Source: Alphaproteobacteria bacterium
GTDB taxonomy: Bacteria; Pseudomonadota; Alphaproteobacteria; RF32; CAG-239
Reading direction: 5' to 3'
Assembly (NCBI GenBank): GCA_015062585.1
Contig: SUUJ01000001.1
Span: 72,736-136,735, forward strand
DNA: 64,000 bases
Shown piece by piece: positions 26,452 through 48,544 of this stretch. Below the pieces are notes generated by a model. The model was not told where the DNA came from. It saw only the letters and a list, made by a program, of their open reading frames with translations, and searched no databases. Numbering within the stretch: position 1 is the stretch's first letter; each line of letters begins with the position of its first letter. The position numbers and the translations under genes are program-made.

Positions 26452-26474
26452 AAGTTTTTAGAGAGGAAAATAAT

Positions 26475-27248: not shown

Positions 27249-27257
27249 GAGGTAAAA

Positions 27258-27617: not shown

Positions 27618-27622
27618 AAACA

Positions 27623-29251
27623 ATGGAAAATACAATCACTTTAACGACCGGTCAAAAAATCGAAGTTTTAATGCAAGATGAAGTAACTTTAGATATTGAT
27701 TGCTCACTTCGTTACATTGAATCGGGAAAAAAAGAAATCGAAACTTATGTGGAAGACATATCTAAACAGCGCCTTAATTCAATTGTTGAAGACGCCAAGC
27801 TACAAATGGATAAGCAGATTGAAGCCGGTGTTGTTGAAGCTCAAGAAAAAGCAGCTATTTCAGCTAAAGAAATTATTGACGAAAATATTTCTTCAATGAA
27901 AAGCGAAATTGACAATTATATCAATAATGATATCAAGCCCGAAATAGAAGGTGCCAAATCGGAAGCAATAAAATCAGCAGATACAGCCGTAGAGGCCGCA
28001 AATTCGGCTTTGTCATCATACAACGGGCTAAAATCCTCATTAGAATTGGCTCAAGAAGTGGCAAGCGGAAATATCGGTGATATCAAGTACACTTTAAGAA
28101 ATACAGAACCCTATGGCGGTGTTTTTTGTAATGGGCAGATATTGACAGAAGAACAATATCCCGATTTATATCAAATGTTGCTCGATGACAGACTTGAAAA
28201 AGTATCTTTAACAGAATACGAAAGTCAGGTAACATTAACCGGTGCTTGTAATTTTTTTGCTATCGATGAGATAAATCAAACGATTAAAGTTCCGACAATA
28301 ACATCAGAAACCCCGGATAAAAGGGCTTATGTTGTTTGTTATACCGGAAAAGATATCGAAATTGACATTACTCAGGAAATAGCTCTCAACAATCCGTTCT
28401 CTTTATTAGACTACAAATGGAGCGAATATGAGCTAAACAATGCTTCTTGGTTACTTTCAAATGGTGCTTTCCATAGTGGAGCAATTTATGTATCTGTTTA
28501 TGAACTCTTGCTAAATATTTATAACGGAACGCAAACAAAAGAAGGTGTAAGCGTTAAGTTATCGACAGAAGAATATACCGATACTGATTTTGTTATCAAT
28601 ACCGCTGATACAACTTTCAGATTACCGATTAAGGTAAAGCTTGCAAGTGGTAATATGATAGTTGGCAATGGTAAACAAGGAATTGGTGTCACAACAGGAA
28701 ATAATGATTTTGCACTATATAATTCAGCAAGTGCTACAACAGGAATTGGTTCCTATGCGGGATTCCAAGATGTAGGAACAGCAGGACATACAGTTTCAGG
28801 TGGCGAAAATAAAGTGTTAGGTATTACCACAGATCCTCTCAAATCCGGCATAGAAACATCAGCTCAAGGTTTATATTTGTATTTTTATGTCGGCGAAACA
28901 ATCCAAGATGCTAATTTGATAAGTGCCTCAGGCGTATTCACGGCTCTGTCCAATAAGGTTGGATTTGATGACAAAGAAACCATTATTGGTTGGGGTATGC
29001 CTGATTATTCTGCAGAAATTGCTTTAACATCAGGAAGCAATCCACATCAGTTAGGATATGTTATGTTTGTTGGTAACGATGTACAAAATGGCTATGCTTT
29101 GGGATATATTGATGGGGTTCAGGTTTTTAGATTCGGTAGTAATGGTTATCAAGCCGGTGAAACAGCGGGAATGTATTTAGTAAATGAACTGAATACTATT
29201 ACAACGGAAAGGGCAACGATAAAATTCTATCCGCTCAAAGGAGTAAATTAA
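27623..29251 (+). CDS. second tail fibre protein with tail-collar domain
   Basis: 'VFCNGQILTEEQYPDLYQML' collar motif. 542 aa with Gly-rich distal part. Confidence 0.65.
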   Translation: MENTITLTTGQKIEVLMQDEVTLDIDCSLRYIESGKKEIETYVEDISKQRLNSIVEDAKLQMDKQIEAGVVEAQEKAAISAKEIIDENISSMKSEIDNYINNDIKPEIEGAKSEAIKSADTAVEAANSALSSYNGLKSSLELAQEVASGNIGDIKYTLRNTEPYGGVFCNGQILTEEQYPDLYQMLLDDRLEKVSLTEYESQVTLTGACNFFAIDEINQTIKVPTITSETPDKRAYVVCYTGKDIEIDITQEIALNNPFSLLDYKWSEYELNNASWLLSNGAFHSGAIYVSVYELLLNIYNGTQTKEGVSVKLSTEEYTDTDFVINTADTTFRLPIKVKLASGNMIVGNGKQGIGVTTGNNDFALYNSASATTGIGSYAGFQDVGTAGHTVSGGENKVLGITTDPLKSGIETSAQGLYLYFYVGETIQDANLISASGVFTALSNKVGFDDKETIIGWGMPDYSAEIALTSGSNPHQLGYVMFVGNDVQNGYALGYIDGVQVFRFGSNGYQAGETAGMYLVNELNTITTERATIKFYPLKGVN

Positions 29252-29252
29252 A

Positions 29253-29615
29253 ATGAAAAAATACGCAAAAGTAATAAATGAAGAAACCAAAGCTTGTGAA
29301 GTTGGCTTGGGTACTAACTCTGCTTTTTATCAATCTATCGGTATGACTGAAATGGAAGTTGAGCAAGCTTATGACGGTAGTTGGTATGTTTTCGGGTTTA
29401 CTCCTGAGAAACCTGTACCGACAAAAGCTGATATTCAAAAAAATCGTGCAGAATTATATCGAATTAAGGTCGATCCGATTACTTCTCAAATCTCAAGGCT
29501 CAGAGATGAGGAACAAACCGATGATATTTTAGCAGAAATTGAAGCCCTTAAAATCAAAAGAGCTGAAATTGTTGCAAAAATTAAACAAGAAAATCCTTAT
29601 CCTGACCAGGAGTAA
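29253..29615 (+). CDS. tail fibre assembly/chaperone-like protein (putative)
   Basis: 120 aa immediately after the fibre gene. Position only. Confidence 0.3.
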   Translation: MKKYAKVINEETKACEVGLGTNSAFYQSIGMTEMEVEQAYDGSWYVFGFTPEKPVPTKADIQKNRAELYRIKVDPITSQISRLRDEEQTDDILAEIEALKIKRAEIVAKIKQENPYPDQE

Positions 29616-29619
29616 TAAA

Positions 29620-29814
29620 ATGCCCGAAAATATCATTGAAGACAGCAAGGTGATAGGTTCTGCCTCAATTGCCGTACTACTGGACTATGCTCAGATTTTT
29701 AACCAATTGATAACTCTGATGATAAGTGTATGCACCTTAGTTTATGTGGCCAACAGAGCTTATTACAGCTTATTTATACATAAGAAGAAAAAAAGGAAAG
29801 GAAAACGCAAATGA
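29620..29814 (+). CDS. holin-like small membrane protein
   Basis: 64 aa, one TM 'VIGSASIAVLLDYAQIFNQLITLMISVCTLVYV', highly basic C-terminus, immediately upstream of the endolysin. CAGGAG RBS. Confidence 0.5.
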   Translation: MPENIIEDSKVIGSASIAVLLDYAQIFNQLITLMISVCTLVYVANRAYYSLFIHKKKKRKGKRK

Positions 29815-30281
29815 TAGATATGTATACTGTCTGTCAAAGATTGATACTACACGAAGGGTTGCGATTGCAACCCTATTTTTGTAGCAAAAATAAGCTAACA
29901 ATCGGAGTAGGAAGATGTGTGCAAACTAATCCTATAACCGCCGAAGAAGAAAAGGTTATCGGGGACTGGCAGCACGGAATCACCAAATGCTCGGCTATGT
30001 ATCTTTTGCGCAACGATATCAAAAGAATATACAAAGAATTAAAAAAAGAGCTGAAATTCTTTCCTGATCTGGATTCTGAACGACAATATGCCTTAATTGA
30101 TATGGCTTTTAATATGGGAACATTCGGTTTGTTACAATTCAAAAAAATGCTAAAAGCCATAGAGTGCGGTAACTATCAATTAGCAGCTAAAGAATGTCTT
30201 AATTCCAAATATGCCAAAGAAGTCGGACAAAGAGCTTTAAGAATTGCTGATACTTTGGCTACCGGAGAGTTCAAAATATGA
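29811..30281 (+). CDS. GH24 lysozyme-type endolysin
   Basis: 'HEGLRLQPY..KLTIGVGR' resembles T4/lambda lysozyme 'EGLRLKxY...YTIGIGH'. Confidence 0.7.
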   Translation: MIDMYTVCQRLILHEGLRLQPYFCSKNKLTIGVGRCVQTNPITAEEEKVIGDWQHGITKCSAMYLLRNDIKRIYKELKKELKFFPDLDSERQYALIDMAFNMGTFGLLQFKKMLKAIECGNYQLAAKECLNSKYAKEVGQRALRIADTLATGEFKI

Positions 30282-30742: not shown

Positions 30743-30768
30743 TTAAAGCTCCTTTTTTTCGATTATTT
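30731..30768. terminator. bidirectional terminator between the lysis cassette and the convergent M23 peptidase gene
   Basis: aaaggagcttt-gatt-aaagctccttttttt. Confidence 0.65.
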
Positions 30769-32721
30769 TTTAGCTACTTTTATATCTTTTGCTTTTGCAA
30801 AATCTTTTCCGAAGTCTCGATCTATTTTGGCAACGAGCTTGTCAAAGTTTTTCAAATTATTTCCGCTCAAATTTTCACCCGTAGAAGCTTTAATGGTGCG
30901 GGGATTAACACGGCGTCCGTTTTGAATTACCTCATAATGCAAGTGAGGACCGGTAGAGCGGCCTGTTGAACCGACATAAGCAATGATTTGTCCTTGTGTT
31001 ACGCGAACACCCGGGCGAATTCCTTGAGCAAAGCGTGACATATGACCATAAGCCGTAGAAAACTCGGAATTATGACGGATTTTAATGTAGTTGCCGTAAG
31101 AGCCGTTATATTTTGCCACTTGAACAACACCATCACCACCGGCATAAATAGGTGTACCGGAAGCAGCCGCATAATCAACGCCCCAGTGAATTTTATATTT
31201 TTTCAATACAGGGTGGAAGCGTTTACCGAAAGGTGATGATATACGGGCATTTTTATTAGCCAATGGTTTGCGGTCCAAGATTTTTTTCAAAGCTCTTCCC
31301 TTATCGGTATAGTAATCAACTTTTCCATTAGAATCCTTAAAGCGATAGAGGCCGATTTTTTGATTTTTCAAAATCAAACCGGCATAAATAATGTTGCCGC
31401 TTTTTACTAAAGTTCCATCAGGAATTATTTGACTCTCATAGACAATTTCGAATCTGTCACCTTTTTTAATGTCACGTTTAAAATCAACCGAGTAAGAGAA
31501 CAAATTGATAAAGTTGCTGACAACCCTCATCGGAATGCCTTTTTTATTCATGACCGAAGAAAGGTTACCGTCAATTATACCGCTGACAGAGTTAATTTCA
31601 TCAATAAATTCTTGTTTTTCAATATGTGTTTCAAATACGCCGTTGTTATTTGCAGTAATAATGCGCTCGCCGGCATTTTGTTCAATCATCAAATAATTTA
31701 TGTCTTTAACCTCTTGAGACTGATTGTCAATTGCTACATTGATTTTTATTTTTTGACCGGCTTTCAAGTTTCTCGGATCATAATGTTCTTTAAGTGAGTA
31801 ATATATATCATTGGCAATTTCACGAGTGGCACCGGCCTTTTTTAACAAAGAAATAAGAGTGTCACCACTTTCTAAAGTAAGTTCTTTTTCTTCATTTTTG
31901 CTTTTGAGCAAGTTATCTACCATATCAAACATTTCTTTTATACTGTTAGATGTTTCATCTACAACATCAATTGATTCGCCTTCGATATTTTGATTGATAG
32001 AGTCTTCGACAATAAGATATGAAAAGTAGTCTTGATTATCAATAGAGGCTTCCACGCGGTTGTTATGAGCTAAAGAAAGTACAAAAGCAATAAATACAGC
32101 CGAAAAATAACAAGTGTTAATTATTCTTTGTTTATGTCTGTATTTTATCTTGAAAGTGAAATTATACTTTTGTCTTAGAGCTTTAATTCGTCCTTTTAAT
32201 AATTTTACCTCATTTTTCATCAAAACAGTAATATTTGCTAACAACTTAAGCTTATTTTTTATCAGGATTAAAACATTCGGTAATTGCTTAAGCAACAGTT
32301 TGGATTTATTTTTGGTTGAAATAAGGAACTCTAATAATGATTTAATCAATGCCTTAAATTTATTTGCAATAAGGATAATGAAATCTGACAATAGTTTAAA
32401 TAAATTGTTCATCAACAATCTGATTTTATTCAGTAATAATTTGCAATTATCCTTTAAGCAGTTGACTTTGTCTTCTAATCTGAAGTTGTCCTTCAATAAT
32501 TTGAATTTATCTTTTAATAAAGCAAAATGATTCTTCAGCATCATAAACTTATTTAATAACAAGCCTGATTTTGCTGTTATCATGTTGATTTTGTCACTTA
32601 ATTCAAAATTTAGTTTTAATTTCAATGTTTTAATCCTATTCAACCGAGTTTGAGTGAATATAGCAAAAATCCCTAGTAAAATAAAGGTTTTAAAGGGGTA
32701 ATGTGCATAACTTAGACACAT
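30763..32721 (-). CDS. M23 (LytM) family metallopeptidase with long N-terminal heptad-repeat region and one TM segment
   Basis: C-terminal 'HWGVDYAA..GTPIYAGGDG' and 'GSTGRSTGPHLHYEV' M23 motifs. TM 'CYFSAVFIAFVLSLA'. N-terminal ~190 aa of KLLKDNF-type heptads. True start uncertain (could be an internal Met before the TM). Confidence 0.7.
   Translation of the reverse strand: MCLSYAHYPFKTFILLGIFAIFTQTRLNRIKTLKLKLNFELSDKINMITAKSGLLLNKFMMLKNHFALLKDKFKLLKDNFRLEDKVNCLKDNCKLLLNKIRLLMNNLFKLLSDFIILIANKFKALIKSLLEFLISTKNKSKLLLKQLPNVLILIKNKLKLLANITVLMKNEVKLLKGRIKALRQKYNFTFKIKYRHKQRIINTCYFSAVFIAFVLSLAHNNRVEASIDNQDYFSYLIVEDSINQNIEGESIDVVDETSNSIKEMFDMVDNLLKSKNEEKELTLESGDTLISLLKKAGATREIANDIYYSLKEHYDPRNLKAGQKIKINVAIDNQSQEVKDINYLMIEQNAGERIITANNNGVFETHIEKQEFIDEINSVSGIIDGNLSSVMNKKGIPMRVVSNFINLFSYSVDFKRDIKKGDRFEIVYESQIIPDGTLVKSGNIIYAGLILKNQKIGLYRFKDSNGKVDYYTDKGRALKKILDRKPLANKNARISSPFGKRFHPVLKKYKIHWGVDYAAASGTPIYAGGDGVVQVAKYNGSYGNYIKIRHNSEFSTAYGHMSRFAQGIRPGVRVTQGQIIAYVGSTGRSTGPHLHYEVIQNGRRVNPRTIKASTGENLSGNNLKNFDKLVAKIDRDFGKDFAKAKDIKVAKK
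32100..32650 (-). repeat. imperfect 21-nt tandem repeats (encode Leu/Lys/Asn heptads) in the 5' part of the M23 peptidase gene
   Basis: Successive units such as AAATTATTGAAGGACAACTTC / AGATTAGAAGACAAAGTCAAC / TGCTTAAAGGATAATTGCAAA read on the minus strand. Confidence 0.55.
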
Positions 32722-35890: not shown

Positions 35891-37087
35891 TTATAGTTTA
35901 ATTTGCATAAATGGCATCGGATCCACAGGATGTCCTCGGTACAATATTTCATAGTGTAGGTGAGGGCCGGTAGAACGACCTGTATTACCGACCTCGCCGA
36001 TATCATCACCGGCTTCCAGATAATCACCTTTTTTAACATAAATAACATGCATATGAGCATATTTTGTTGAAAAACCGTTTCCGTGATCGATTTCAACCAA
36101 ATTTCCATATCCTTTATTCGAAATAAGGGTGCGAGTGACTCTGCCTTTTGCCTGAACTTTTATCTTGTTTCCGGTTCGTGAGGCAAGGTCAACACCTTTA
36201 TGACCGGCTTTTTTACTATTGAACGGATCATCTCTTACACCAAATTTTGAGCTGACCCAATAGCTCCATATCGGTTTGCCGAAAGGAACAGTTTTAGATA
36301 CTTCGCGATAATACTCCAAGTCGTCAACAGCTTTATATATGCTGCTTATTTTATTTATAATAGCTTTATCGCGTAAATCAGACATTGAATCCGGAATATA
36401 GTTACCACCTTTAGAATCTCGTTTTTTCGAGTTTGCCAACGGATTAAAGTAAAGGCCTTTCCTCTGAAGAGAGCCATTAGCCTTTGAAAAAGCGCTTTTT
36501 AATTTGTTCACTTCTTTAGCAACAATGGTTTCAACTTTGTTAAATACCTCAATTTCGGCCTTTTTAATATTGTAAACAGCCACTTCAAGCTCTTTTAACT
36601 GGTCTTTCAAGGCATCGCGTTCGGCAGCAGCCAAATCTCTTTGCAAAACCAATTCGTTAATATCAGCTCTATCGTTAATTTTTTTGTTATCTGTTATATT
36701 TTTGTCATGAGTAATTTGTTTTAGCTTATTTTCGACTTTTTGTGCCTTGGTCTTATCCATAGAGGTCAAAACTTCATCAATATTTTTTTGAATAGCCACA
36801 AAATCACTCATCAAGTCTTCGTAAGCGTCACGAGTTTGCAAAAGCTCGATATCTTTGCCTAAAATGATTTTACCGGATTTGTTATACATGTGATAGGAAT
36901 AAAAAGACCAAAAAGACAGCAAAAGCACAAACATCAATATCAAAAATTGTGTTTTTGATGAAAATTTGAATACCATAGCCTTGCCGGAACCTCTGAAGAT
37001 TATTTCTTTTTCAGAGAAAAAAGGCTTTTTTTCGGTATAATGCGGCGAATATTTGCGCTTTAGTTTAATTTTGTTCCTATATTTCAT
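35891..37087 (-). CDS. M23 peptidase with N-terminal TM and periplasmic coiled coil (EnvC/Csd1-like)
   Basis: 'GHKGVDLASRTGNKIKVQAKGRV' and 'GNTGRSTGPHLHYEI' motifs. Coiled-coil middle region. Confidence 0.75.
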   Translation of the reverse strand: MKYRNKIKLKRKYSPHYTEKKPFFSEKEIIFRGSGKAMVFKFSSKTQFLILMFVLLLSFWSFYSYHMYNKSGKIILGKDIELLQTRDAYEDLMSDFVAIQKNIDEVLTSMDKTKAQKVENKLKQITHDKNITDNKKINDRADINELVLQRDLAAAERDALKDQLKELEVAVYNIKKAEIEVFNKVETIVAKEVNKLKSAFSKANGSLQRKGLYFNPLANSKKRDSKGGNYIPDSMSDLRDKAIINKISSIYKAVDDLEYYREVSKTVPFGKPIWSYWVSSKFGVRDDPFNSKKAGHKGVDLASRTGNKIKVQAKGRVTRTLISNKGYGNLVEIDHGNGFSTKYAHMHVIYVKKGDYLEAGDDIGEVGNTGRSTGPHLHYEILYRGHPVDPMPFMQIKL

Positions 37088-37306
37088 ACAATAGAACCGT
37101 TTGTTGTTACTACCTAAAAAGCTATATCAAAAAAAATACAAAAAATAAACTTATTTTTAAAAAGTTATCCAAAAGGGGATTTAAAATTAAGCTTAAACAA
37201 TAAGTTAGCGTTGTGGTTATATTGTTATTTTTTGCCGGAGTCAACAAAATTTTGTAGTATGAAGGTCTTTATACCGATATTTTCACTGTTTTATAAGGAC
37301 TTTAAT

Positions 37307-37894
37307 ATGATTTACGGATATTGCAGAATAAGTACAACTCATCAGCAAGTTTGCAATCAAAGTCATGAAATTCAAGCATTTGCTGATAAAAAAGGAATAA
37401 AAATTGACCAATGGATTGAAGAAATAATTTCTTCCAGAGAAGCTTTAGCCAATCGCAAACTTGGAAAAATATTAAAAAAATTAAGAAGGGGCGATATTTT
37501 GATTGCTACCGAGCTTTCGCGTTTGGGAAGAAATTTGCTTGAGGTAATGGGGATATTACAACAATGTCTTGAAAAAGATTGTCAAATATGGACCTTGAAG
37601 GAAAATTATCGACTGGGAGCAGATATTCAATCAAAAGTTTTGGCTTTTGCTTTTGGTTTGGCTGGTGAAATAGAGCGCCAATTGATATCCGAGCGCACCA
37701 AAAACTCGCTCCAAAGATTAAAAGATGAGGGCAAACACCTGGGAAGACCTTATGGTAAAACCTACAAAAAGCTAGAAAAAAAACACAGCGAGATAAAAAA
37801 ATTATTGAATAATAATGTTTCAAAGGCTGAAATTGCCAGGCTTATGAATTGCACCTGGCAAACTCTGCATAGGTATGTGAAAAAGGAGTTATGA
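37307..37894 (+). CDS. serine recombinase (resolvase/DNA-invertase family)
   Basis: 'MIYGYCRISTTHQQ' N-terminal catalytic-Ser motif, ~196 aa, C-terminal HTH 'SKAEIARLMNCTWQTLHRYV'. ORF-track N-terminal extension rejected. Confidence 0.75.
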   Translation: MIYGYCRISTTHQQVCNQSHEIQAFADKKGIKIDQWIEEIISSREALANRKLGKILKKLRRGDILIATELSRLGRNLLEVMGILQQCLEKDCQIWTLKENYRLGADIQSKVLAFAFGLAGEIERQLISERTKNSLQRLKDEGKHLGRPYGKTYKKLEKKHSEIKKLLNNNVSKAEIARLMNCTWQTLHRYVKKEL

Positions 37895-37919: not shown

Positions 37920-39791
37920 TTAATTAAAATTATGTTTAGTTTTTCTTCTCCAATATTTTCGGCTGATGTTATAAAATAATTTAAATATTTTCTTTAATAT
38001 TGAACTTTTAATAATCCTATATTGAAAATTGGATAATACATTATATTTTTTACACATCCTTAAAAAATCATTGAAAGAAATATCTAAGCATCCGACCCAA
38101 TTATATATTCCTCGTGCGGCACAATACATATTATAAGTTTTGTGTTTTGTAATTTTTCCTTTTTGATGATGTAGTAAATTCATTAATTGTTCGATTTTGG
38201 GATGCGTTGAAATATCATTTGAATCTGATAAAGTGTGCTGACGATATCTAAGTCCGCATCCTCTAATGATAATACTGTCACCCATAGAACTGATATCTAA
38301 AAGAAACGGTAAGTCAAATACTTTTCCAAATAGTTCAGGTTTGTAGTTACATTTGGTATAGGCGCTGGTTTTATAGATCATTGCTGCAAAACACCATCTC
38401 TGAATTGAATGCGCAAAATTAGCACTATTCGTTGCGTTCCACAGATAGTATGATTTGTTTAAGCTAGGCCAATTATTGTTATCAGGATTATACATAACAT
38501 CAAATGAACAACTGGCCATGACAGCATTAGGGTGTTTGTTAAATAATTTCATAGCTGTTTCAATAAACTGAGGATGAACGACATCATCATCATGAAATAC
38601 CGCCGTATATTCATTAGATGCTAAGATCTGGGTTTTTTGAAAATTTTTAGGATTTCCAATGTTTGTATCATTTTTGATATGTACTATATTTCTATCGGTA
38701 TATTCCTTTTGTATCATATTTATAACAGCATCTGTTTCATCTGTACTGGCGTTGTCTAAAATTTTAATAATAAATCCACTTGCTGTTTGTTTACACAAGG
38801 ATTCTAACATTGTTTTCAGATAGTTAGCCCTATTATAAGTTAGAACAAAAACATCTAAGTTAGGATAATTATTTGAGTTGTTAGATACAGAGTTTTTTAT
38901 ATGTTGTTTTTTCATAACGGACCTTATAATTGTAGTATAAAATTTTATGTTTTTATATAAATAAGGAAACCATAAATAAAGCAAATTTAGTTTATTTTTT
39001 ATTTTATTAGGACATATCAAATTTATAGGAACATACTTAACAAAAATATTAATTAACAAATTAATTTGTTTTTTAGTAATTCCAAATTCAGATGATTTTA
39101 TTAAAGTTTTCAGATGATCCGTATATATTGAAGGCCCTTTTGAATAATTAAGCCAAGTTTGTTCACCTAAATGTATTGTTACAATCGGTTCTTTATCACA
39201 AAATGTATAATATTTATGGCCTTTCGACAAACAGTAAAGAGCTAATAATAGGTGTAACCATTCTGAAGAGTAGTTTAGTTGCAAGAATTTTTTAGCATAA
39301 TCAGCCTTTACAACGATATTTGAACAACACCAAAAATGATATCCGCACATTGATAGAAACGCTGTAACATCATTTGACTCGGCTTCTTTTTCGATTTCCG
39401 TTCTTTGAATATATTTTTCATTTTGCAAAAAATTGTTCGTTAAATTTATTAGTGAATATGAAGTATCAGCTTTTATCAATGTGATTATTTTTTTTAATCC
39501 GTTTTCGCAATAAAAATCATCATCTCCAAGAAAATGTATGTATTTTCCTTTGGCTAGTTCACAGCATTTCAATATGTTTCCACTATATCTTATGATTTTA
39601 GGATGTTTTCTTATATATTCATTGACAATACTCTTTGTATTATCAGTAGAACAATTATCACTAATAACAATCTCAACACCGCTTATTTTATCCTTGGCGA
39701 TTTGTTGTAAAATGTTGTCGATATTATGTTTTATATATTTTTCACCATTATATGTTGGAATACATATTGATAAATAGATACATTTGTCCAT
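37920..39791 (-). CDS. two-domain family-2 glycosyltransferase
   Basis: 'LSICIPTYNGEKYI..ISDNCSTDNT' and second 'VFVLTYNRANYL..LDNASTDETD' GT2 signatures. Confidence 0.75.
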   Translation of the reverse strand: MDKCIYLSICIPTYNGEKYIKHNIDNILQQIAKDKISGVEIVISDNCSTDNTKSIVNEYIRKHPKIIRYSGNILKCCELAKGKYIHFLGDDDFYCENGLKKIITLIKADTSYSLINLTNNFLQNEKYIQRTEIEKEAESNDVTAFLSMCGYHFWCCSNIVVKADYAKKFLQLNYSSEWLHLLLALYCLSKGHKYYTFCDKEPIVTIHLGEQTWLNYSKGPSIYTDHLKTLIKSSEFGITKKQINLLINIFVKYVPINLICPNKIKNKLNLLYLWFPYLYKNIKFYTTIIRSVMKKQHIKNSVSNNSNNYPNLDVFVLTYNRANYLKTMLESLCKQTASGFIIKILDNASTDETDAVINMIQKEYTDRNIVHIKNDTNIGNPKNFQKTQILASNEYTAVFHDDDVVHPQFIETAMKLFNKHPNAVMASCSFDVMYNPDNNNWPSLNKSYYLWNATNSANFAHSIQRWCFAAMIYKTSAYTKCNYKPELFGKVFDLPFLLDISSMGDSIIIRGCGLRYRQHTLSDSNDISTHPKIEQLMNLLHHQKGKITKHKTYNMYCAARGIYNWVGCLDISFNDFLRMCKKYNVLSNFQYRIIKSSILKKIFKLFYNISRKYWRRKTKHNFN

Positions 39792-39802
39792 GATTGTTTT
39801 CT

Positions 39803-40855
39803 CTATGATATATGATATTTATTGTAATATTTTTTTAGTTTGCAATCAAATTTTTCTTTGTATTTTGTTGAAGAAATTTTTAATAATAATTTTAGACACT
39901 TAACCTTAAATTTTATAAGACTGAATTTAAGGTAAAAAGCAAGCAAGTATTTAATAATAATTTTTTTATATTTTGTTCTCATATTACAGTAAAAATCCAT
40001 GATATTATAAAAATTATTATGTATGAATGATAGATTTATATATTGCTTTATAACACTATCTATATCCCGTTTTCCGTTTCTCCAATCTATATATTCAATT
40101 AAAATATCCATGGTTTGATACTTTAGATTCGTATCATTCAAATCGGATATAGCAATTGCAAAGCCACCCTCAAAAGTCATATTTACAAATCTGCTGCTGC
40201 AAAATTTTTTATCATAACCCCTTAACCAACTTACATCTTCAGCTGTTTTGTTTTCATAAACTCCATGTTTAACAATTTGTTTATCCACGACATATAAGGT
40301 TCCATGGTTATTTATAAAATTTACCAAAGGAATAATATGGGGAAACATACAGTACACATTATCATATATTGTTTTAATAACAGTATCATTTAATAGGTCT
40401 TTAGAATAAATTACCGCACTTACAAAAGCAGATTGAGTTAATTGTTTTGATATATTATATTTGAATTTTTCCGGTAAATCCATTCTTGACACAATTATGG
40501 CTTTTTCATTTGCTAAAATTGCTTGTTCAACTTCAGACCAATTACTCCAGTCATAAGTATCATCATCTGCGACAATCCACAGATAGTCTTTTGTATTATA
40601 CTCAAAGGCCTTTGCTATGTTTGCATTTGCTCCGACATTATAGTTGTTTTTCTTGTATGTAATATTTTTATGCTGTTTCTGAAAGTGTTTCACAACAGAA
40701 TATGTATCATCATTACTGCAATTATCAAGAATCATTATATCATAATCTCTAACAGGTGATGTTTCACTTAAAAATATATCCAAGGTTCTCTGCAGATATT
40801 TTTTTCTATTAAATGTAATTATTATAATTTGTAACTTATTTTTTGCTGAAATCAT
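39803..40855 (-). CDS. family-2 glycosyltransferase
   Basis: 'IIIITFNRKKYL..LDNCSNDDT'. Start trimmed to the internal Met (MISAKNK) to avoid an 80-nt overlap. Confidence 0.65.
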   Translation of the reverse strand: MISAKNKLQIIIITFNRKKYLQRTLDIFLSETSPVRDYDIMILDNCSNDDTYSVVKHFQKQHKNITYKKNNYNVGANANIAKAFEYNTKDYLWIVADDDTYDWSNWSEVEQAILANEKAIIVSRMDLPEKFKYNISKQLTQSAFVSAVIYSKDLLNDTVIKTIYDNVYCMFPHIIPLVNFINNHGTLYVVDKQIVKHGVYENKTAEDVSWLRGYDKKFCSSRFVNMTFEGGFAIAISDLNDTNLKYQTMDILIEYIDWRNGKRDIDSVIKQYINLSFIHNNFYNIMDFYCNMRTKYKKIIIKYLLAFYLKFSLIKFKVKCLKLLLKISSTKYKEKFDCKLKKYYNKYHIS

Positions 40856-41690
40856 TGCTTCTTTCCTTAAGCATGTTTTTGATACCATCGTGATAGGGAG
40901 TAAAGTTAAATTCATTAATAATACTTTTTAGTAGAGTATTATCCGCCGTATATTCATTGTTCATACCATCTTGCTTAAATAATATAGAAAAATTACTATT
41001 GTTAACCTCATTAGCTATTTCAGCTAATCTTTTAATCGTTATGTCGTCGGTTTGTGTAACATTAATAAATTTATATTTAGGAAAATTTTTAATAAAATAT
41101 TCAACAATTTTACAAAGATCATCAATATAAATAAAACTAAATTTTACATTTTGATTAAGTTCTATATTCTTTTTGTTTATAATACTATTGATAATACAGC
41201 TTGTTACTCTGGTTGGATTTTCTCCTATTCCATAAACTCCAAACAGGCGAAGATTTAATATATTTTTGCTATTAGTAATCATTTTAGATATAACATATTT
41301 AGAATAGCCATATGGATCTTTAGGAACAGATTTGCCAAAATCTTCTTCTTTGACATTTGTTATATTTGTGCTTTTATCATACTCCGCTCCGGAACCAAGA
41401 ATAATCATTTTGCAGCTATCAGAAGTGTGTTCTGCCAAATTGTTAAACATTTCAATATTTGGTCTGGCTACATCATCATTTGTTGCACCAGGAGTTATTC
41501 TAACGCCCATAGCAGCGCAATGAATAATAAAATCTATTTTGTTTTTATCAAAATAATTAGCGACTTCTTGTTTATTCAATAGGTCCAATTCTGTTATCGA
41601 AGGAGTAAACAAGGTATAATTATCAAGTAAATAACTCTTTATGTGAGAGCCAATAAAACCATCAGCACCTGAAATGAAAATGTTGGTCAT
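40836..41690 (-). CDS. NAD-dependent sugar epimerase/reductase (YerF-like candidate)
   Basis: 'IFISGADGFIGSHIKSYL' Rossmann motif. 284 aa. Adjacent to the TPP enzyme and ddh genes. Confidence 0.6.
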   Translation of the reverse strand: MTNIFISGADGFIGSHIKSYLLDNYTLFTPSITELDLLNKQEVANYFDKNKIDFIIHCAAMGVRITPGATNDDVARPNIEMFNNLAEHTSDSCKMIILGSGAEYDKSTNITNVKEEDFGKSVPKDPYGYSKYVISKMITNSKNILNLRLFGVYGIGENPTRVTSCIINSIINKKNIELNQNVKFSFIYIDDLCKIVEYFIKNFPKYKFINVTQTDDITIKRLAEIANEVNNSNFSILFKQDGMNNEYTADNTLLKSIINEFNFTPYHDGIKNMLKERSNDFSKK

Positions 41691-43399
41691 TATAGTTCTT
41701 CCTTTTTTATTTGCTCTAATTCTTCATCAGAAATTAAAGGATGCATTTTATCTATAGTATTTCCAAACAGAACCTTAGGGGTAATTTGTGTACTCTGTTC
41801 AAATATAATATTTATCAATACATGATCGTTTGATTCTAGAAAATCATTTATCATATCATCTGTGAGGTCTTCAGCCCTGACTGTTATTCCATTAATTTTA
41901 TATGCATTGGCAACTAAAGAAAAATCAGGAGCTGAATAATCATGTACAGTCGATGCGTTTCTACCTTCAAAATATAAATCTTGAAATTGTCTAACCATAC
42001 CTAGACTAAAGTTATTCATAATCACTATTTTGATAGGTAAGTTTCTTCTTTTAATTATTTCTAACTCTTGAATATTCATTTGGAAACCGCCGTCTCCTGA
42101 TATTACAATACTTCGAGCTCCTGATATACTTGCGCCAATGGCTGCCGGTAGGGCAAATCCCATGCATCCCAGTCCACCAGATGATAAGTGCCGTGAATGT
42201 TCTTTTACAACTAAAGATTGTCCGACCCACATCTGATGTTGTCCGACATCTGAGCAAACAACATCATCATTATTCAACTTTTCGCTGATCTTCTTAATAA
42301 TTATGTTGGGTAAATTCTTGTTTCCATCCAAATCCTCTGTTGATGGATATTTTTTCTTTAACTGAAGAACTTTACTTTGCCAATTTGTAATATTTATATT
42401 CAATTCTTTTTGACATAATTGCTGGAAAAAACTATCTATGGATAAGTTAACGGTTATTTTATTCAGATTACTACACTTCAGTTGACCTTCATCTATATCA
42501 ACATGTATAATTTTTTTATTGTTAAAAATAGATGTATTAGCTCCTATTTGCCTGATATCCAACCTTGATCCTAAAACTAATATTGTATCAGCTATAGATA
42601 ACGCAATGTTAGCATATCTGTTTCCATAAGTGCCAATCATTCCCAAATTGTATATATACTCAGAAGGTACACAATCCAGACCTAATAAAGACTCTACAAC
42701 AGGAATTTGTGTTTTGTCCAAAAAATCTCTTAAATATTGTTGAGCCGAAGATAAACGCACGCCATTGCCAACAAGAATAATAGGAGATTTTGAAGAATTT
42801 ATAATATCAATAATGTTTTTTAGATCTATTTCATTTTGGGGAACGCAAGGAGCATAAAAAGACCTTGCTTTAGAAAAATCAAAATCAATTCGCTGAATAT
42901 CCATAGGAATATCAATTAAAACAGGACCTTTTCTACCATCCTGAGCAATAAAAAACGCTTTTTCAAGTTCATATCGTAAATTTTTAATATCATCAATAAG
43001 GACGGCATATTTTGTTATTGGTTTTGCCATAGAAACAATATCTGTTTCTTGGAATCCTGTTTGTCGTATTTCAGGAAACTTTTTATATTCAAAAGTATTA
43101 ACTTGCCCTGTTATAAATACTACAGGAGTAGAATCAAAATAGCAACTTGCCATAGGGGTTAATAAATTTGTTGCTCCAGGTCCTGATGTTGCTATTGCAA
43201 CAGATACTTTTCCTGTTACTCGGGAATATCCTTCTGCTGCAAAACCAGCCCCTTGTTCTGTGATGGTATTAACCATTTCAATATAATCTGATTGATAGAT
43301 GCTATCTGTGAGATGAGCAACCATTCCTCCAATATATCCAAAAATTTTAGAAATATTTTTCTGTATAAAAAAATCTACTATAAAGTCAGAAGCTTTCAT
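41690..43399 (-). CDS. thiamine-pyrophosphate enzyme of the acetolactate-synthase family (YerE-like branched-sugar synthase candidate)
   Basis: ALS-like N-terminal 'GYIGGMVAHL..EQGAGFAAEGYSRVTGKVSVAIATSGPGATNL'. 569 aa. Placed between ddhC and a reductase. Confidence 0.6.
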   Translation of the reverse strand: MKASDFIVDFFIQKNISKIFGYIGGMVAHLTDSIYQSDYIEMVNTITEQGAGFAAEGYSRVTGKVSVAIATSGPGATNLLTPMASCYFDSTPVVFITGQVNTFEYKKFPEIRQTGFQETDIVSMAKPITKYAVLIDDIKNLRYELEKAFFIAQDGRKGPVLIDIPMDIQRIDFDFSKARSFYAPCVPQNEIDLKNIIDIINSSKSPIILVGNGVRLSSAQQYLRDFLDKTQIPVVESLLGLDCVPSEYIYNLGMIGTYGNRYANIALSIADTILVLGSRLDIRQIGANTSIFNNKKIIHVDIDEGQLKCSNLNKITVNLSIDSFFQQLCQKELNINITNWQSKVLQLKKKYPSTEDLDGNKNLPNIIIKKISEKLNNDDVVCSDVGQHQMWVGQSLVVKEHSRHLSSGGLGCMGFALPAAIGASISGARSIVISGDGGFQMNIQELEIIKRRNLPIKIVIMNNFSLGMVRQFQDLYFEGRNASTVHDYSAPDFSLVANAYKINGITVRAEDLTDDMINDFLESNDHVLINIIFEQSTQITPKVLFGNTIDKMHPLISDEELEQIKKEEL

Positions 43400-44760
43400 T
43401 ATACAATACTCCGGATGAAGTCGTGAATAACCTTAGATGTCTTTTTCATATCTTCCGGAGTATTGTTCTGAGCAACACCTACCCAAAATGTGTGATTCAT
43501 TATAAATTCTGTTCCGGGTAAACTAGCATAATGTATTTCATGTAATTCTTTTGCATTCAATAACTCTGAACTACCAATCCGTAAATTGATATCATTTTCC
43601 ACAATCATTGGTTGACGCAAAATGTTACCCGCAAACAATTGACGTGTTCCAATGCCATTAGCTTCTAGATACTTTACCAAGTCTTGCTTAGTAAATGGAG
43701 CATTCTCCTTTACTGAAATTAAAAAACCAAACCATGATGGAGTACAATTTTCTGTAATTTTTGGTAAAATTAAATAATCTTCTAAATCAGATAGTTCTCG
43801 CAACAGTGTTTCTGCATTTTCTTTACGCATAGCTAAAAATTTATCTAATTTTTTAAGTTGGGCTAAAGCAATGGCTGCTTGCCAATCAGTAATCTTTAAG
43901 TTATAACCGATGTGTGAATATGTATATTTATGATCATAACCTTTCGGTAAATTGCCTAACTTTAAGTTAAATCGATTATGACAAGTATCATCACAACCAG
44001 GTTTACACCAGCAATCACGTCCCCAATCTCTAAAAGACATAATGATGCGGTGTAATATAGGATCATTAGTTACGACAGCGCCACCTTCACCCATTGTAAT
44101 ATGATGCGCAGGATAAAAACTATATGTTCCTATATGACCAATTGTTCCGGCATATTTACCATTCCATTTTGCACCCAATGCATCACAACTATCTTCAATT
44201 ACCCAAAGATTATATTTTTGAGCTAAATCCATAATTTTATCCATATCATACATATTACCCAATGTATGAGCTAAGAAAATTGCTCTGGTTTTAGGTGAAA
44301 TAGCTTCTTCAATTTTGTTTACATCAATATTATATGTTCCAACCTCACAATCAACAAATACGGGAATCATACCATTTTGAATAATAGGATTCACTGTCGT
44401 TGGAAATCCTGCAGCCACGGCAATAACTTCATCACCTTTCTTTAATGCTCTGTCTTGTAGCTTGTGAGATGTCAAAGCTGAAAATGCTAACAAGTTGGCT
44501 GACGATCCAGAGTTTGTTGTAAGTGCATATTTTACACCTAATTTTTGTGCAAAGTCTTTTTCAAATTCATCATTAAAACGACCGGAGGTCAACCACATAT
44601 CCATAGAAGCCTCAAACATATTTATAAGTTCTTCGCATCCAATATTTTTACCCGATGCTGGAATATATTTTTTTTCTCTTTTTGCTTTCTCTTCTTCTAA
44701 ACAATTAGCGTAATCTTTAGCTAAATCCAAAATTTGTTGTTTGATGCTTTCTTTATTCAT
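43399..44760 (-). CDS. ddhC: CDP-6-deoxy-D-xylo-4-hexulose-3-dehydrase (E1)
   Basis: DegT-family fold with 'SFYPAHHITMGEGG', i.e. His in place of the PLP-binding Lys, the hallmark of the E1 dehydrase. 453 aa. Confidence 0.75.
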   Translation of the reverse strand: MNKESIKQQILDLAKDYANCLEEEKAKREKKYIPASGKNIGCEELINMFEASMDMWLTSGRFNDEFEKDFAQKLGVKYALTTNSGSSANLLAFSALTSHKLQDRALKKGDEVIAVAAGFPTTVNPIIQNGMIPVFVDCEVGTYNIDVNKIEEAISPKTRAIFLAHTLGNMYDMDKIMDLAQKYNLWVIEDSCDALGAKWNGKYAGTIGHIGTYSFYPAHHITMGEGGAVVTNDPILHRIIMSFRDWGRDCWCKPGCDDTCHNRFNLKLGNLPKGYDHKYTYSHIGYNLKITDWQAAIALAQLKKLDKFLAMRKENAETLLRELSDLEDYLILPKITENCTPSWFGFLISVKENAPFTKQDLVKYLEANGIGTRQLFAGNILRQPMIVENDINLRIGSSELLNAKELHEIHYASLPGTEFIMNHTFWVGVAQNNTPEDMKKTSKVIHDFIRSIV

Positions 44761-44761
44761 A

Positions 44762-45853
44762 TTATAAACTCCAATCTATATTTTTTGCTTGTGCGTTTGC
44801 TACAAATTCATTGATTTGTTTTTTTGTAAAATCAACCATATCTGTATCGTTTTTATAAAAAGCTTTGTACCATTCTGTTGTTTTAATAATTGCTTCTTCT
44901 GCACTATAAACAGGTTTCACACCCAGTTCTTTTTCTGCTTTTTCAATGTTAAGTTGAAGTAGGTTAGCCTCATGCAATCCATCAGCTTTGCCGACTTCAA
45001 CTTTCCCATTTCCCCAAACCTCAGAAACTTTTTGTGCGACCTCACAAACTTTTACATCTTTATTCATTTCCGGTCCAAAATTATACCCCTGAGCATATTT
45101 AGAGCCTTCTTCTAATAATTTTTGTCCTAAACGCAGATATCCGGCTAATGGCTCTAATACATGTTGCCAAGGACGAGTTGCTAAAGGATTTCTTATAAAG
45201 ACAGTTTCATTTTGTTGAAATGCTTTAATACAATCTGGTATAAGCCTGTCTTTTGCCCAATCACCACCACCAATAACATTACCCGCACGACCGGATGCCA
45301 AAGCATAAGGTTTACCATCAGTCAAGAATGAACGACGATATGAAGATGTTAGAATTTCAGAACATCCCTTGGATGAGGAATAAATATCATATCCGCCCAT
45401 TGGCTCGTCTTCTTTATATCCTTCTTTTTTCTCTTTGTTTTCATAGCATTTATCTGTGGTTACATTCACAAAGGCCTTAACAGATGGTGTTTTACGTGCG
45501 GCTTCTAAAACTTTTAGTGTGCCAATAATATTAGTTTCATATGTTTCCACAGGTTCAGAATATGAAAGACGAACAATCGGCTGCGCGGCTAAATGGAAAA
45601 CGATGTCAGGATTATGCTTGGCAAAATATGTTTCTAACTTTTGGTTTTCTCGAATATCCGCAATTAAACTATCATCTAAAGTATTTTCTAAATTTAACAC
45701 TTTAAACAAATGTTTTTCAGTATCAGGCAAAAGAGAATATCCGACAACTTTAGCACCCATCTGCTTCAACCAAAATGCAAGCCAACTTCCTTTAAAACCC
45801 GCATGACCGGTAATTAATACGGTTTTATTTGAATAAATATTATTAAATAGCAT
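44762..45853 (-). CDS. ddhB: CDP-glucose 4,6-dehydratase
   Basis: 'VLITGHAGFKGSWLAFWL' N-terminus. 363 aa. Between ddhA and ddhC. Confidence 0.75.
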   Translation of the reverse strand: MLFNNIYSNKTVLITGHAGFKGSWLAFWLKQMGAKVVGYSLLPDTEKHLFKVLNLENTLDDSLIADIRENQKLETYFAKHNPDIVFHLAAQPIVRLSYSEPVETYETNIIGTLKVLEAARKTPSVKAFVNVTTDKCYENKEKKEGYKEDEPMGGYDIYSSSKGCSEILTSSYRRSFLTDGKPYALASGRAGNVIGGGDWAKDRLIPDCIKAFQQNETVFIRNPLATRPWQHVLEPLAGYLRLGQKLLEEGSKYAQGYNFGPEMNKDVKVCEVAQKVSEVWGNGKVEVGKADGLHEANLLQLNIEKAEKELGVKPVYSAEEAIIKTTEWYKAFYKNDTDMVDFTKKQINEFVANAQAKNIDWSL

Positions 45854-45854
45854 G

Positions 45855-46637
45855 TTAATTATTCCAAATCTTCCAAGGGGCTCTATTTTCAGCCCATAAT
45901 TGATTTAAATCTTGCTTATCTTTCAACATGTCCATCGGATGCCAAAAGCCTACATGTTTATATGCATTCAATTGTTTATCCCTAGATAAAGATAATAAGG
46001 CACTTTTTTCAAACATTAACTCATCTGAATTTTCTGGAAGATAATTAAATATCGCAGGTTCACAAATCATAAATCCGGCATTGATCCAAGATCCGCTTTC
46101 CTTAGGTTTTTCCGCAAAATTTGATATTGTTCCATCACCTTCAATTCCTAATGACCCATATTTACCTTCAGGTTGATATGCTGTTAATGTGCATATTTTT
46201 CCGGATTTCTTATGAGCTTCTAATAAGTCGGGGATAGATATATCTGCTACACCATCACCATATGTCAACATAAAAGGTTCATTACCAATATATTTTTGAG
46301 CCTTTTTAATTCGTCCTGCAGTTAGAGTGTTTCTTCCGGTATATAGCAAAGTAACTTTAAATGGTTCACAATGATTTTGGTGCACTGTTATATCATTTGT
46401 TGATAAATCAACAGTTACATCGGAGTTATTCATATAGTAATTAACAAAGTAATCTTTTATTACCTCTTGCTTATAGCCGGTTAAAATAACAAAATCATTA
46501 TAACCATAGTGAGAATATATTTTCATTATATGCCATAAAATAGGATATCCTCCAATTCCGACCATAGGTTTAGGTTTAATTGAAGTTTCTTCTCCTAATC
46601 TTGTTCCTAGGCCACCGGCCAATATTACTACTTTCAT
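45855..46637 (-). CDS. ddhA: glucose-1-phosphate cytidylyltransferase
   Basis: 'MKVVILAGGLGTRL..SIKPKPMV.IGG.PILWHIM' motif. 260 aa. Confidence 0.8.
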   Translation of the reverse strand: MKVVILAGGLGTRLGEETSIKPKPMVGIGGYPILWHIMKIYSHYGYNDFVILTGYKQEVIKDYFVNYYMNNSDVTVDLSTNDITVHQNHCEPFKVTLLYTGRNTLTAGRIKKAQKYIGNEPFMLTYGDGVADISIPDLLEAHKKSGKICTLTAYQPEGKYGSLGIEGDGTISNFAEKPKESGSWINAGFMICEPAIFNYLPENSDELMFEKSALLSLSRDKQLNAYKHVGFWHPMDMLKDKQDLNQLWAENRAPWKIWNN

Positions 46638-47473
46638 TTTTTATTTCTCCTCAATTTAATTTGCAATTTTCCGATATGATAAATCTTATGAGACGATGTT
46701 TTTTCCTTATATAAAAACGGCGGTTTCTTTCCACAAAATGCGTCAAACCTACGACGCATACTTTTTGCCAAAAAGTTATAATTTTGCTTGTACATATCCG
46801 TGTGAAATGAAAAAATTTTATTGAACGAAAAGGTATACTTTTCAAGACTATCACTCAGCTTGGTAATCATCGATACTTCATGTTGCCGGTAATAAAACAA
46901 AACCTCCGGAATTCTATACACTCCAACGCCGTTTTCAATCAGAGAAAGCCAAAATTCATAATCTTCTAAGCCATAAATCATTTCTTTCTTGTAACCACCG
47001 ACTTTTTCCCAATCTGATTTTCTAAACAATGCCGTACAAAAGATACGATTACTATTTAAGATATCAGGAAACTTATATTCTTTTAGGGGCCACAGTCCTT
47101 GTTTGGCTCCAAAAAACTCTGCCAAACAGTAAACTATTCCTATTTTATCATTATTCTCAATAACATTAACGGCCTTTTCAATATAGGTAGGCCCAATTTT
47201 ATCATCAGCATCAAGAGGCAAGATATACTTACCAGTTGCTGCTGCGATACCGGTATTGCGAGCTTCGGCCAATCCCTCATTTTGTTTGTTGATTACTTTT
47301 GTCTTAGGTTTGGAATAATTATTTAGTAAAGTATTAGTTGCTTCATCCGTTGAACCGTCATTAACAATAATTATTTCAATATCATCATAACTCTGTGCCA
47401 AGCATGAATTAACAGCCTCATCAACATATTGTCCGTGATTGTAACAAGGAATTACTATACTAACTCTAGGCAT
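46634..47473 (-). CDS. family-2 glycosyltransferase
   Basis: 'VSIVIPCYNHGQYV..DIEIIIVNDGSTD' GT2 signature. Confidence 0.7.
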   Translation of the reverse strand: MPRVSIVIPCYNHGQYVDEAVNSCLAQSYDDIEIIIVNDGSTDEATNTLLNNYSKPKTKVINKQNEGLAEARNTGIAAATGKYILPLDADDKIGPTYIEKAVNVIENNDKIGIVYCLAEFFGAKQGLWPLKEYKFPDILNSNRIFCTALFRKSDWEKVGGYKKEMIYGLEDYEFWLSLIENGVGVYRIPEVLFYYRQHEVSMITKLSDSLEKYTFSFNKIFSFHTDMYKQNYNFLAKSMRRRFDAFCGKKPPFLYKEKTSSHKIYHIGKLQIKLRRNKK

Positions 47474-47476
47474 ATA

Positions 47477-48334
47477 TTACTTCTCCTGCAATTTAATTAC
47501 AGATTTGCTTGCAAACAGCGGCAATTTCTTAAAAAGGTATACTTTTGTGAGATTTGCTTGTTTTTTGATTGTTATAAAAGGAATAAAACCAAACAGTCTT
47601 ATTCTTGTGGTATGCTTGGCTTTGAATAAAAATTCTTCATACAATTGCGGGTTGTCATTTTTTACAAAAGACCAAATACTCAAAGTTGCCTGACGCATTT
47701 TATCACTTTGTCGGTGTGAGGTATTTTGTCCGTGATCTCTGTAATGAAATAAAATCTCGTTCAAATTGTGAAAATTGGTAAAAGGTATCAGTCTGCACCA
47801 CAAAGCGTAGTCTTCAGAGGGTGAAAATTCTTCTTCATAACGGATGTTATTTTCAGTCAAAACTGATTTTCTAATCATGGCGGCCGAGTGGTTTATACTG
47901 CAAACCCTCATTAAAGCCAGTTTTATATCGTGGTTATTGCTCGGATTTCTGGATGTTTTGCCTCTTATCATGGTTTTGACCTTGCAAGAAACAACCCCGA
48001 CATCCGAATGTTCGTCTAAATAAGCTACTTGCTTTTCCAGTCTGTCGGGTAAAGATATGTCATCATGGTCAAAAACTGCCAGATATTCGCCACTTGCCAT
48101 ATCTATAAGCTTATTTCTACTTGGCGTAATTCCTAGATTTTGCTCATTTTTAGAATATTTTATGCGTTTGTCTTTGTATGATTTTACAATTTCTTCTCGG
48201 TCATCATCAGGACAATCGTCAAGAATCAAAAATTCAAAGTCCGAAAAGGTCTGATCGAGGATAGATTCTATAGCCTCTCTTAAATACTTTTCATTAGTTT
48301 TATATACAGGCATTAACACCGATACTTTGGGCAT
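47477..48334 (-). CDS. family-2 glycosyltransferase, copy 1 of an inverted duplicate pair
   Basis: 'VSVLMPVYKTNEKYL..FEFLILDDCPDDD'. ~95 % aa identity to 48560-49417. Confidence 0.75.
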   Translation of the reverse strand: MPKVSVLMPVYKTNEKYLREAIESILDQTFSDFEFLILDDCPDDDREEIVKSYKDKRIKYSKNEQNLGITPSRNKLIDMASGEYLAVFDHDDISLPDRLEKQVAYLDEHSDVGVVSCKVKTMIRGKTSRNPSNNHDIKLALMRVCSINHSAAMIRKSVLTENNIRYEEEFSPSEDYALWCRLIPFTNFHNLNEILFHYRDHGQNTSHRQSDKMRQATLSIWSFVKNDNPQLYEEFLFKAKHTTRIRLFGFIPFITIKKQANLTKVYLFKKLPLFASKSVIKLQEK

Positions 48335-48385
48335 TGCTAATCCTTTTCACTTTGAATTGTCCTAATTTTATGGAACACGACAGCT

Positions 48386-48544
48386 TATCCATAAACCACC
48401 GTTTACGGATAGTTATTCAAGAGGCTTTTGGTAAAGTTAAAAAAAATAAGGAAAAAGCTTGTATTTTCTATTTTTTTCCTTGCATTATTGTTTTTATTGG
48501 AGTAAGACTTTCACTATGTAATTTAAACGGTGGTTTATGGATAA
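48386..48544. promoter_or_regulatory. candidate invertible promoter segment: 117 bp bounded by perfect 21-bp inverted repeats
   Basis: ttatccataaaccaccgttta at 48386-48406 and its exact reverse complement at 48524-48544. Enclosed AT-rich segment contains TTGCAT/TTGTAT -35-like hexamers. Sits between two divergent operons. Confidence 0.5.

Follow-up and report, generated by a model that had tools for sequence, protein, structure and literature searches.

Results

A serine invertase gene beside a glycan operon

The 64-kb stretch of alphaproteobacterial DNA analysed here (hereafter referred to as the window) carries on its plus strand a gene for an Mpi-like serine DNA invertase (37307–37894), which begins with ATG at 37307, ends with the stop codon at 37892–37894 and encodes a product of 195 residues with the N-terminus MIYGYCRISTTHQQ. 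The Resolvase N-terminal domain (Pfam PF00239) was found in this product with an E-value of 3.4e-29, covering model positions 1–144 of 145. The catalytic residues R7, S9, R72 and R75 are all present and are invariant in 60 of 60 aligned homologues. The best relative of solved structure is the Gin invertase (E = 1e-11), with which the protein aligns over Gin residues 1–177, including the helix-turn-helix (HTH), Ser9 falling on Ser9 of Gin. Although the Pfam HTH_7 model scored 20.4 bits at the C-terminus, below its threshold of 23.8, the alignment with Gin and a full-length match to the Mpi model both place an HTH there. The protein has the features of the small serine recombinases, namely a catalytic domain with the serine and arginine residues and a C-terminal HTH, in agreement with the initial annotation, which had described a serine recombinase of about 196 residues with a catalytic motif and a C-terminal HTH.

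The sole strong NCBIfam match was the 'master DNA invertase Mpi family' model NF009949, which aligned over the full length with 262.1 bits (E = 3e-78), a score below the curated cutoff of 272. Members of the same clade straddle this cutoff (P0019, 276.6 bits; P0024, 274.0; P0086, 265.3; P0118, 264.9). Judged by these scores, the window invertase is either a member of the Mpi family or a protein at its edge. Homologues with 73–100% identity are abundant in metagenome-assembled genomes (MAGs) labelled Alphaproteobacteria, and several of them bear the NCBI name Mpi family. Outside this clade, the nearest annotated relatives share 45–59% identity and comprise Mpi-family proteins of Prevotella, Phocaeicola and Parabacteroides, together with proteins of a few further phyla and of the Bacteroides phage B124-14.

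Inspection by eye of the upstream region suggested a putative promoter for the invertase gene itself, TTGCCG-N17-TAGTAT (37232–37260, plus strand), and this region is conserved in the 97%-identical relatives (L020/L021). In several other relatives, a perfect palindrome, AATAGTT-N4-AACTATT, which looks like an operator, lies just 5′ of the ribosome-binding site of the invertase gene (L005:9960–9990, L016:9960–9990 and equivalent positions); it has been lost from the window (about 37270–37300) and from the closest relatives. The start region of the gene (37307–37321; also L016:9995–10014) reads ATGATTTA(C/T)GGATA, encodes MIYGY and resembles the recombination half-site GTTTA(C/T)GGATA, a resemblance that coincidence or an autoregulatory binding site could explain.

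Gene neighbourhood and the question of a mobile element

The invertase gene stands alone on the plus strand, as noted initially, between the minus-strand genes of an M23 peptidase on the left (35891–37087) and a double GT2 glycosyltransferase on the right (37920–39791); genes for bactofilin, FlgE and GtrA lie further to the left. The GT2 gene is the last of a glycan operon (operon A, described below) whose end is 26 nt from the invertase stop codon. The initial annotation had called the recombinase an orphan; this label does not fit, as the invertase clade is always linked to glycan loci and the window gene abuts the 3′ end of an operon that is led by a switch.

A prophage occupies about 14862–30281, with genes for an S24 repressor, a large terminase, a portal protein, a major head protein, an amidase and a tail collar protein. 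The last ORF of clearly phage-like character ends about 7 kb from the invertase gene; the distance of 4.5 kb proposed earlier holds only if the M23/Csd3 peptidase at 30763–32721 is counted as a phage gene. As had also been proposed, host genes separate the two, namely those for M23/Csd3 peptidase, GtrA, FlgE, bactofilin and M23 peptidase. Searches with Pfam and PHROGs revealed no recognisable prophage integrase within the window, and two ORFs at the left prophage edge (12420–13679 and 13746–14423) matched neither collection. Among the approximately 45 window ORFs screened with Pfam or PHROGs there was no other recombinase, and phmmer detected no second serine recombinase; these searches cover 64 kb of the genome.

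The recombinase might be part of a mobile element, as an invertase or integrase of the prophage or as a resolvase of a transposon or plasmid, and be unrelated to the glycan switch. The prophage 7 kb away indeed has no recognisable integrase in the window, PHROGs groups the protein with phage DNA invertases, and Mpi-family genes are known on plasmids and on the phage B124-14. Against this stand the intervening host genes and the surroundings of the gene: the initial annotation had considered that res sites or transposon ends of its own would assign the recombinase to another element, and our scan around the gene found only AT-rich chance repeats, without res arrays or terminal repeats. Furthermore, no phage or plasmid record exceeding 60% identity was found, and orthologues in at least six other contexts adjoin glycan genes, none of them accompanied by phage structural genes. 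Because host genes intervene, res sites and terminal repeats are lacking and every orthologue examined lies beside glycan genes, membership in a mobile element is essentially excluded, and we consider this explanation very improbable.

A segment with a putative promoter between two divergent glycan operons

At a distance of 10.49 kb from the invertase gene, measured from the gene end to the inverted repeat (IR) and close to the 10 kb given initially, an IR-bounded segment is located between two divergent glycan operons. Operon A (37920–48334, minus strand) starts 50 nt from the left site of the segment and encodes GT2, GT2, nucleotidyltransferase, dehydratase, DegT aminotransferase, thiamine pyrophosphate (TPP) enzyme, epimerase, GT2 and the double GT2. 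Operon B (48560 to about 57642, plus strand) starts 15 nt from the right site and encodes GT2, GT2, GT1, GT1, UDP-sugar dehydrogenase, epimerase, hexapeptide acyltransferase and a deacetylase-methyltransferase-GT1 fusion.

The IR is perfect over 21 bp, with arms at 48385–48405 and 48524–48544 and 118 nt between them. Further copies, for which a search had been suggested, were not found elsewhere in the 64-kb window even when three mismatches were allowed, and none of 100 shuffled sequences gave two matches. Each arm is part of a longer candidate crossover site. The left, promoter-distal site (48386–48411) reads TATCCATAAACC-AC-CGTTTACGGATA and is nearly palindromic with a 12-2-12 layout: its 12-bp halves match at 10 of 12 positions as inverted repeats around the predicted crossover dinucleotide AC (48398–48399), and its outer 21 nt (48385–48405) coincide with the left arm of the IR. 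The right, promoter-proximal site (48518–48543), GTAATTTAAACG-GT-GGTTTATGGATA with the core GT at 48530–48531, shares the outer half and the core with the left site; its outer half is strong and its inner half weak, retaining only TAAAC. Two 12-bp inverted half-sites around an asymmetric 2-bp core are the hallmark of sites of the Hin/Gin type, and the initial expectation of short IRs with a 2-bp core was thus borne out. As established for Hin and Gin, an asymmetric core dinucleotide restricts serine recombinases to inversion between inverted sites.

The unique part of the segment (48406–48523) carries a promoter-like element on the plus strand, consisting of a −35 sequence TTGCAT (48480–48485), a 17-nt spacer, a −10 sequence TAAGAC (48503–48508) and a TATGTAA box (48515–48521), which in the assembled orientation points toward operon B. 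A strict sigma-70 scan of the segment called no promoter; the −10 sequence TAAGAC is non-canonical. We aligned the switches of six species, each oriented by its internal asymmetry. Shared by all six, and on one strand throughout, are the distal site, which is nearly palindromic, TTGC(A) without variation, a spacer of 17 nt, a hexamer rich in T and A, a TAT(A/G)TAA box and the proximal site. The strand-specific TTGCA-N17-TAnnAn element is thus conserved in the switches of six species, and we infer that it is a promoter facing the proximal site. With a perfect 21-bp IR around this conserved element, the segment has the composition of an inverton, that is, an IR-bounded segment with a predicted promoter.

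Linkage of the invertase clade to the site family

To examine the relationship between the invertase and the sites, we compared the surroundings of four orthologues, P0019 (85% identity), P0024 (83%), P0086 (76%) and P0118 (73%). In all four loci the invertase gene is arranged head-to-head with a glycan operon. A scan with the 20-mer of the window sites detected one inverted site pair per locus, as compared with none in shuffled loci, and in each case the pair lies in the gap of about 270 nt upstream of the invertase gene (L005–7, L008–9, L010–12 and L016–19), with the right site ending 81 nt before the invertase ATG. A homologous promoter segment is found directly beside the invertase gene in these four related species, at 81 nt, as against 10.49 kb in the window. 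The IRs diverge in step with the invertases, showing 1 mismatch in 20 at 85% identity and 2–4 mismatches at 73–83%.

In the species of P0024, a gene for a 519-residue tyrosine recombinase (DUF6538 and Phage_integrase domains; L005:10583–12142, minus strand) immediately follows the invertase gene. This arrangement recalls the mpi-tsr19 pairing of B. fragilis (PMC4747536).

The site family also occurs away from the invertase gene. The 20-mer of the window bounds, with 20 of 20 identical positions, a different switch in another species (L003/L004, a Hadza gut MAG), which is the only exact occurrence that we found among the GTDB genomes, at a single locus. This switch is located between a glycan operon led by a cytidylyltransferase gene and one led by rmlA, and no invertase gene lies within the 8 kb of surrounding sequence. 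The flanks and the interior have diverged while the sites are unchanged, a pattern that speaks for selection acting on the sites. In L022, the invertase gene is intact although the sites beside it have decayed. Both loci point to action of the invertase at a distance.

Natural inversion in an orthologous system

Three assemblies carrying the P0118 invertase gave direct evidence of flipping. The invertase and the flanks are identical in L010, L011 and L012, and the segment of L011 is the reverse complement of that in L010 and L012. The inner bases of the sites are exchanged between the orientations (…CACCGTTTT / TAAACGGTGG… in L012 and …CACCGTTTA / AAAACGGTGG… in L011), and the discriminating outer bases have not moved. 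This exchange brackets the crossover within CACCGTTT, a sequence that contains the predicted central AC. Natural inversion thus takes place in this orthologous system, whose invertase is 73% identical to that of the window. The flipped copy (L011:9144–9256) lacks 32 nt (TTTTTTGCTGTTATAAGTCTGGCTATATAAAA) in comparison with L012:7536–7680, and with them the −10 sequence and the TATATAA box, so that the two do not form a clean ON/OFF pair; the deletion could represent a promoter-dead variant or an assembly artefact.

Within these local systems, most assemblies have the invertible promoter directed at the invertase gene (L005–7, L010, L012 and L016–19, as against L008–9 and L011); in L008 and L009 it faces the glycan operon. 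The orientation of the switch may accordingly feed back on expression of the invertase.

The kinship with the Mpi family, the linkage to the sites in four species, the inversion in the orthologous system and the 12-2-12 architecture of the sites together support the pairing of the window invertase with the distant switch, and the earlier suggestion that this recombinase serves the IR-bounded segment gains comparative evidence along these four lines. We consider it probable that an active Mpi-like invertase acts in trans on the two 26-bp sites 10.5 kb away and thereby toggles operons A and B.

Orientation of the switch in the window species

All readable assemblies of the window species (the window itself, L001/L013, L014, L015 and L025) have the promoter facing operon B, and the inverted orientation was absent from them; consensus assemblies report the majority orientation only. 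After inversion, the left junction would read GACAGC followed by the IR TTATCCATAAACCACCGTTTA and AATTACATAG, and the right junction GAATAACTATCCG followed by TAAACGGTGGTTTATGGATAA and ATAGAAGG. A scan of metagenome contigs for the flipped junction gave no match, a result of little weight because the contig collection barely samples the window organism; a scan with the IR by itself gave a single contig, from another species. The IR was not found in viral contigs.

Three further observations are no more than suggestive of flipping. In sample 3300018494 the assembly is interrupted within the switch, with contig L002 beginning at the first base of the right IR and contig L015 ending 16 nt short of it; both contig ends fit the reference orientation and leave a gap of 16 nt between them. 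Another sample yielded a contig of 924 bp (L025) that comprises little more than the switch and the starts of both flanking genes. In addition, a 65-codon ORF that spans the switch and exists in one orientation was present on 16 contigs, as compared with 21–22 for the flanking genes. SNPs or gene calling could explain this gap, which leaves the census an ambiguous hint.

A single orientation in every readable assembly, together with the lack of flipped junctions in the metagenome contigs, is what one would expect if the window switch were a fossil locked toward operon B and the invertase served other genomic targets or none. There is a precedent for such decay in L022, in which the invertase is 90% identical and intact, the same promoter has a fixed orientation facing a GT2 operon and the sites are unrecognisable. 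The sites of the window are unlike these: the arms are identical at 21 of 21 positions, and the inner half of the left site still matches at 10 of 12. One assembly is interrupted within the switch, the orientation-specific ORF is missing from 6–7 of about 22 long contigs, and consensus assemblies show the majority orientation only. We regard a locked switch as quite unlikely.

Duplicated lead genes of the two operons

The lead genes of the operons are inverted duplicates of each other. GT2-A (47477–48334, minus strand) and GT2-B (48560–49417, plus strand) share 95% amino acid identity and 91% nucleotide identity over 858 nt, with a longest exact run of 95 nt. The nucleotide identity rises from about 70% in the first 120 nt to about 96% in the rest, a pattern that suggests gene conversion sparing the 5′ ends, and the pair is a possible substrate for homologous recombination.

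Homologous recombination between GT2-A and GT2-B would likewise swap the promoter between the operon bodies. Hence, the toggle could be run mainly by RecA-dependent recombination between the inverted GT2 genes, with the invertase being irrelevant at this locus or merely additive. The high identity beyond the first 120 nt and the long exact runs are compatible with this explanation, as is a 924-bp contig from one sample (L025), which comprises the switch with both 5′ gene ends and stops inside the identical GT2 runs; k-mer limits of the assembler would be enough to account for these ends. Recombination between the GT2 genes offers no account of a perfect gix-like IR that recurs at 20 of 20 positions in another species despite diverged flanks and interior, and it leaves the strict linkage of the site family with the invertase clade unexplained. 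We therefore prefer site-specific inversion by the Mpi-like enzyme and consider a RecA-driven toggle unlikely.

Possible history of the locus

The arrangement in the window, with the invertase gene tail-to-tail with glycan genes, is shared by L020/L021, whose invertase is 97% identical. The upstream homology between the window and these relatives stops at GTG(G/T)TTATATTG (window 37206–37225; L021:95–120), the position occupied elsewhere by the outer half of the proximal site; past this point, the M23 peptidase gene follows in the window and a different gene in L021. This break may be the scar of a rearrangement at a recombination site, an interpretation that we hold loosely. The corresponding sequence, …GTTGTGGTTATATTG (37206–37225), may, with low confidence, be a decayed remnant of the outer half of an ancestral right site. 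A candidate relic of the left site upstream of the window invertase was rejected as indistinguishable from chance.

The phase-variable glycan operon of the relatives begins with a gene for an invertase paralogue of about 200 residues (L016:9154–9756, L010:9171–9758 and L005:9130–9729, all on the minus strand), which is absent from the window. The paralogue family has 151 members, all unnamed and found exclusively in Alphaproteobacteria MAGs, often on the same contig as an invertase. The HTH is kept, and the catalytic arginines are replaced: R7 by D in 89 of 90, R72 by C in 84 of 90 and R75 by S or N in 88 of 90 sequences. Judging from these replacements, the paralogue looks catalytically dead and may be a site-binding lock or a directionality factor.

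These observations allow a tentative reconstruction, which we put forward as possible and rather doubtful. The gut Alphaproteobacteria would possess their own Mpi-like clade, the ancestral circuit of which regulated itself: the flipping promoter would drive either the glycan operon or the invertase gene, and the dead paralogue leading the glycan operon could, by binding to the sites of the invertase, lock the switch or bias it. In the window lineage, the circuit would have been rearranged at a recombination site, giving a remote, trans-acting invertase and a glycan toggle of one promoter and two operons.

Discussion

Proposed mechanism of the toggle

The arrangement of the genes, sites and promoter-like element, the conservation of sites and element across species, the linkage of the sites to the invertase clade and the inversion in the P0118 system are observations on assembled DNA; from them we infer that the enzyme flips the window switch, as well as the exact position of the crossover, the activity of the promoter and the phenotype. 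In the proposed mechanism, invertase dimers would bind each 26-bp gix/hix-like site and synapse, and cleavage at the central AC/GT dinucleotide followed by rotation and religation would invert the 132 bp between the cores. The single outward promoter of the segment would drive operon B (from 48560 rightward) as assembled and operon A (from 48334 to 37920) after the flip. As one promoter is common to the two divergent operons, exclusivity would be structural, and a cell would express one of two alternative glycan programmes by a hard-wired either/or toggle.

Comparison with known invertible systems

Mpi of B. fragilis is a serine invertase that works in trans on glycan loci and flips their short promoter segments (PMC4747536, PMC4611039). 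The window system resembles it in having a serine invertase of about 195–200 residues in a gut bacterium, encoded outside the invertible segment, and short IRs that bound a promoter segment of about 130–200 bp upstream of surface-glycan operons; Mpi also provides the best NCBIfam model (262 bits), and Mpi-family proteins of Bacteroidota are 45–59% identical. It differs in its alphaproteobacterial host, in a score just under the family cutoff, and in having one target in the 64-kb window as compared with 13 in B. fragilis. Moreover, one promoter serves two divergent operons in the window, whereas each B. fragilis locus has its own ON/OFF promoter; exclusivity would be structural in the former and comes from UpxY/UpxZ in the latter; and the promoter is of a −35 TTGCA type instead of the TAnnTTTG type of Bacteroides. 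What is new relative to Mpi is the host phylum, the toggle of one promoter and two operons whose lead genes are duplicated, and the distance between invertase gene and switch, which are adjacent in the relatives. We found no published description of such an alphaproteobacterial two-operon toggle in the searchable literature.

The sites themselves resemble those of Gin. Compared with the gix site of phage Mu, taken from the Mu genome (NC_000929) as TTATCCAAAACC-TC-GGTTTACAGGAA, the window site has the same 12-2-12 layout and matches at 16 of 26 positions in register, sharing TTATCCA…AAACC and GTTTAC. The enzymes belong to the same superfamily, and in the relatives of the window the invertase gene is adjacent to the switch, as are gin and hin. 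In contrast, the proteins are only about 25–30% identical to Gin and Hin, the invertible segment of the window measures 132 bp instead of 1–3 kb, and the window gene lies 10.5 kb from its presumed target. Inversion by Hin, Gin, Cin and Pin involves a recombinational enhancer that is bound by Fis and lies in cis, most often within the 5′ part of the invertase gene; Fis is not expected in Alphaproteobacteria.

In the sap system of Campylobacter fetus, RecA-dependent promoter inversion proceeds via conserved 5′ regions of the genes. As in the window, a single promoter lies between oppositely oriented homologous genes, and inversion chooses the expressed gene set. What sets the window apart is the presence of dedicated gix-like sites together with a cognate serine invertase; in addition, GT2-A and GT2-B are least similar in their 5′ 120 nt.

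Implications

If the reconstruction of the ancestral circuit is true, serine invertases would have in the pseudo-recombinase a lock or directionality factor of a new kind. For the analysis of metagenomes, switches of this type explain breaks in contigs, and reads allow them to be scored directly. With one promoter for two operons, mutually exclusive glycan expression would be achieved without a second regulatory layer. Phase-variable surface glycans are linked to immune evasion, resistance to phages and survival in the gut over time, and the switch makes surface variation concretely testable in organisms that are known from MAGs alone. A trans-acting serine invertase that drives phase-variable surface glycans is a hallmark of the gut Bacteroidales, and the strategy is known mainly from Bacteroides. 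The presence of an Mpi-like enzyme, gix-like sites and homologous invertible promoters in uncultured, flagellated gut Alphaproteobacteria suggests that this strategy extends across phyla of the gut, by transfer or by convergence.
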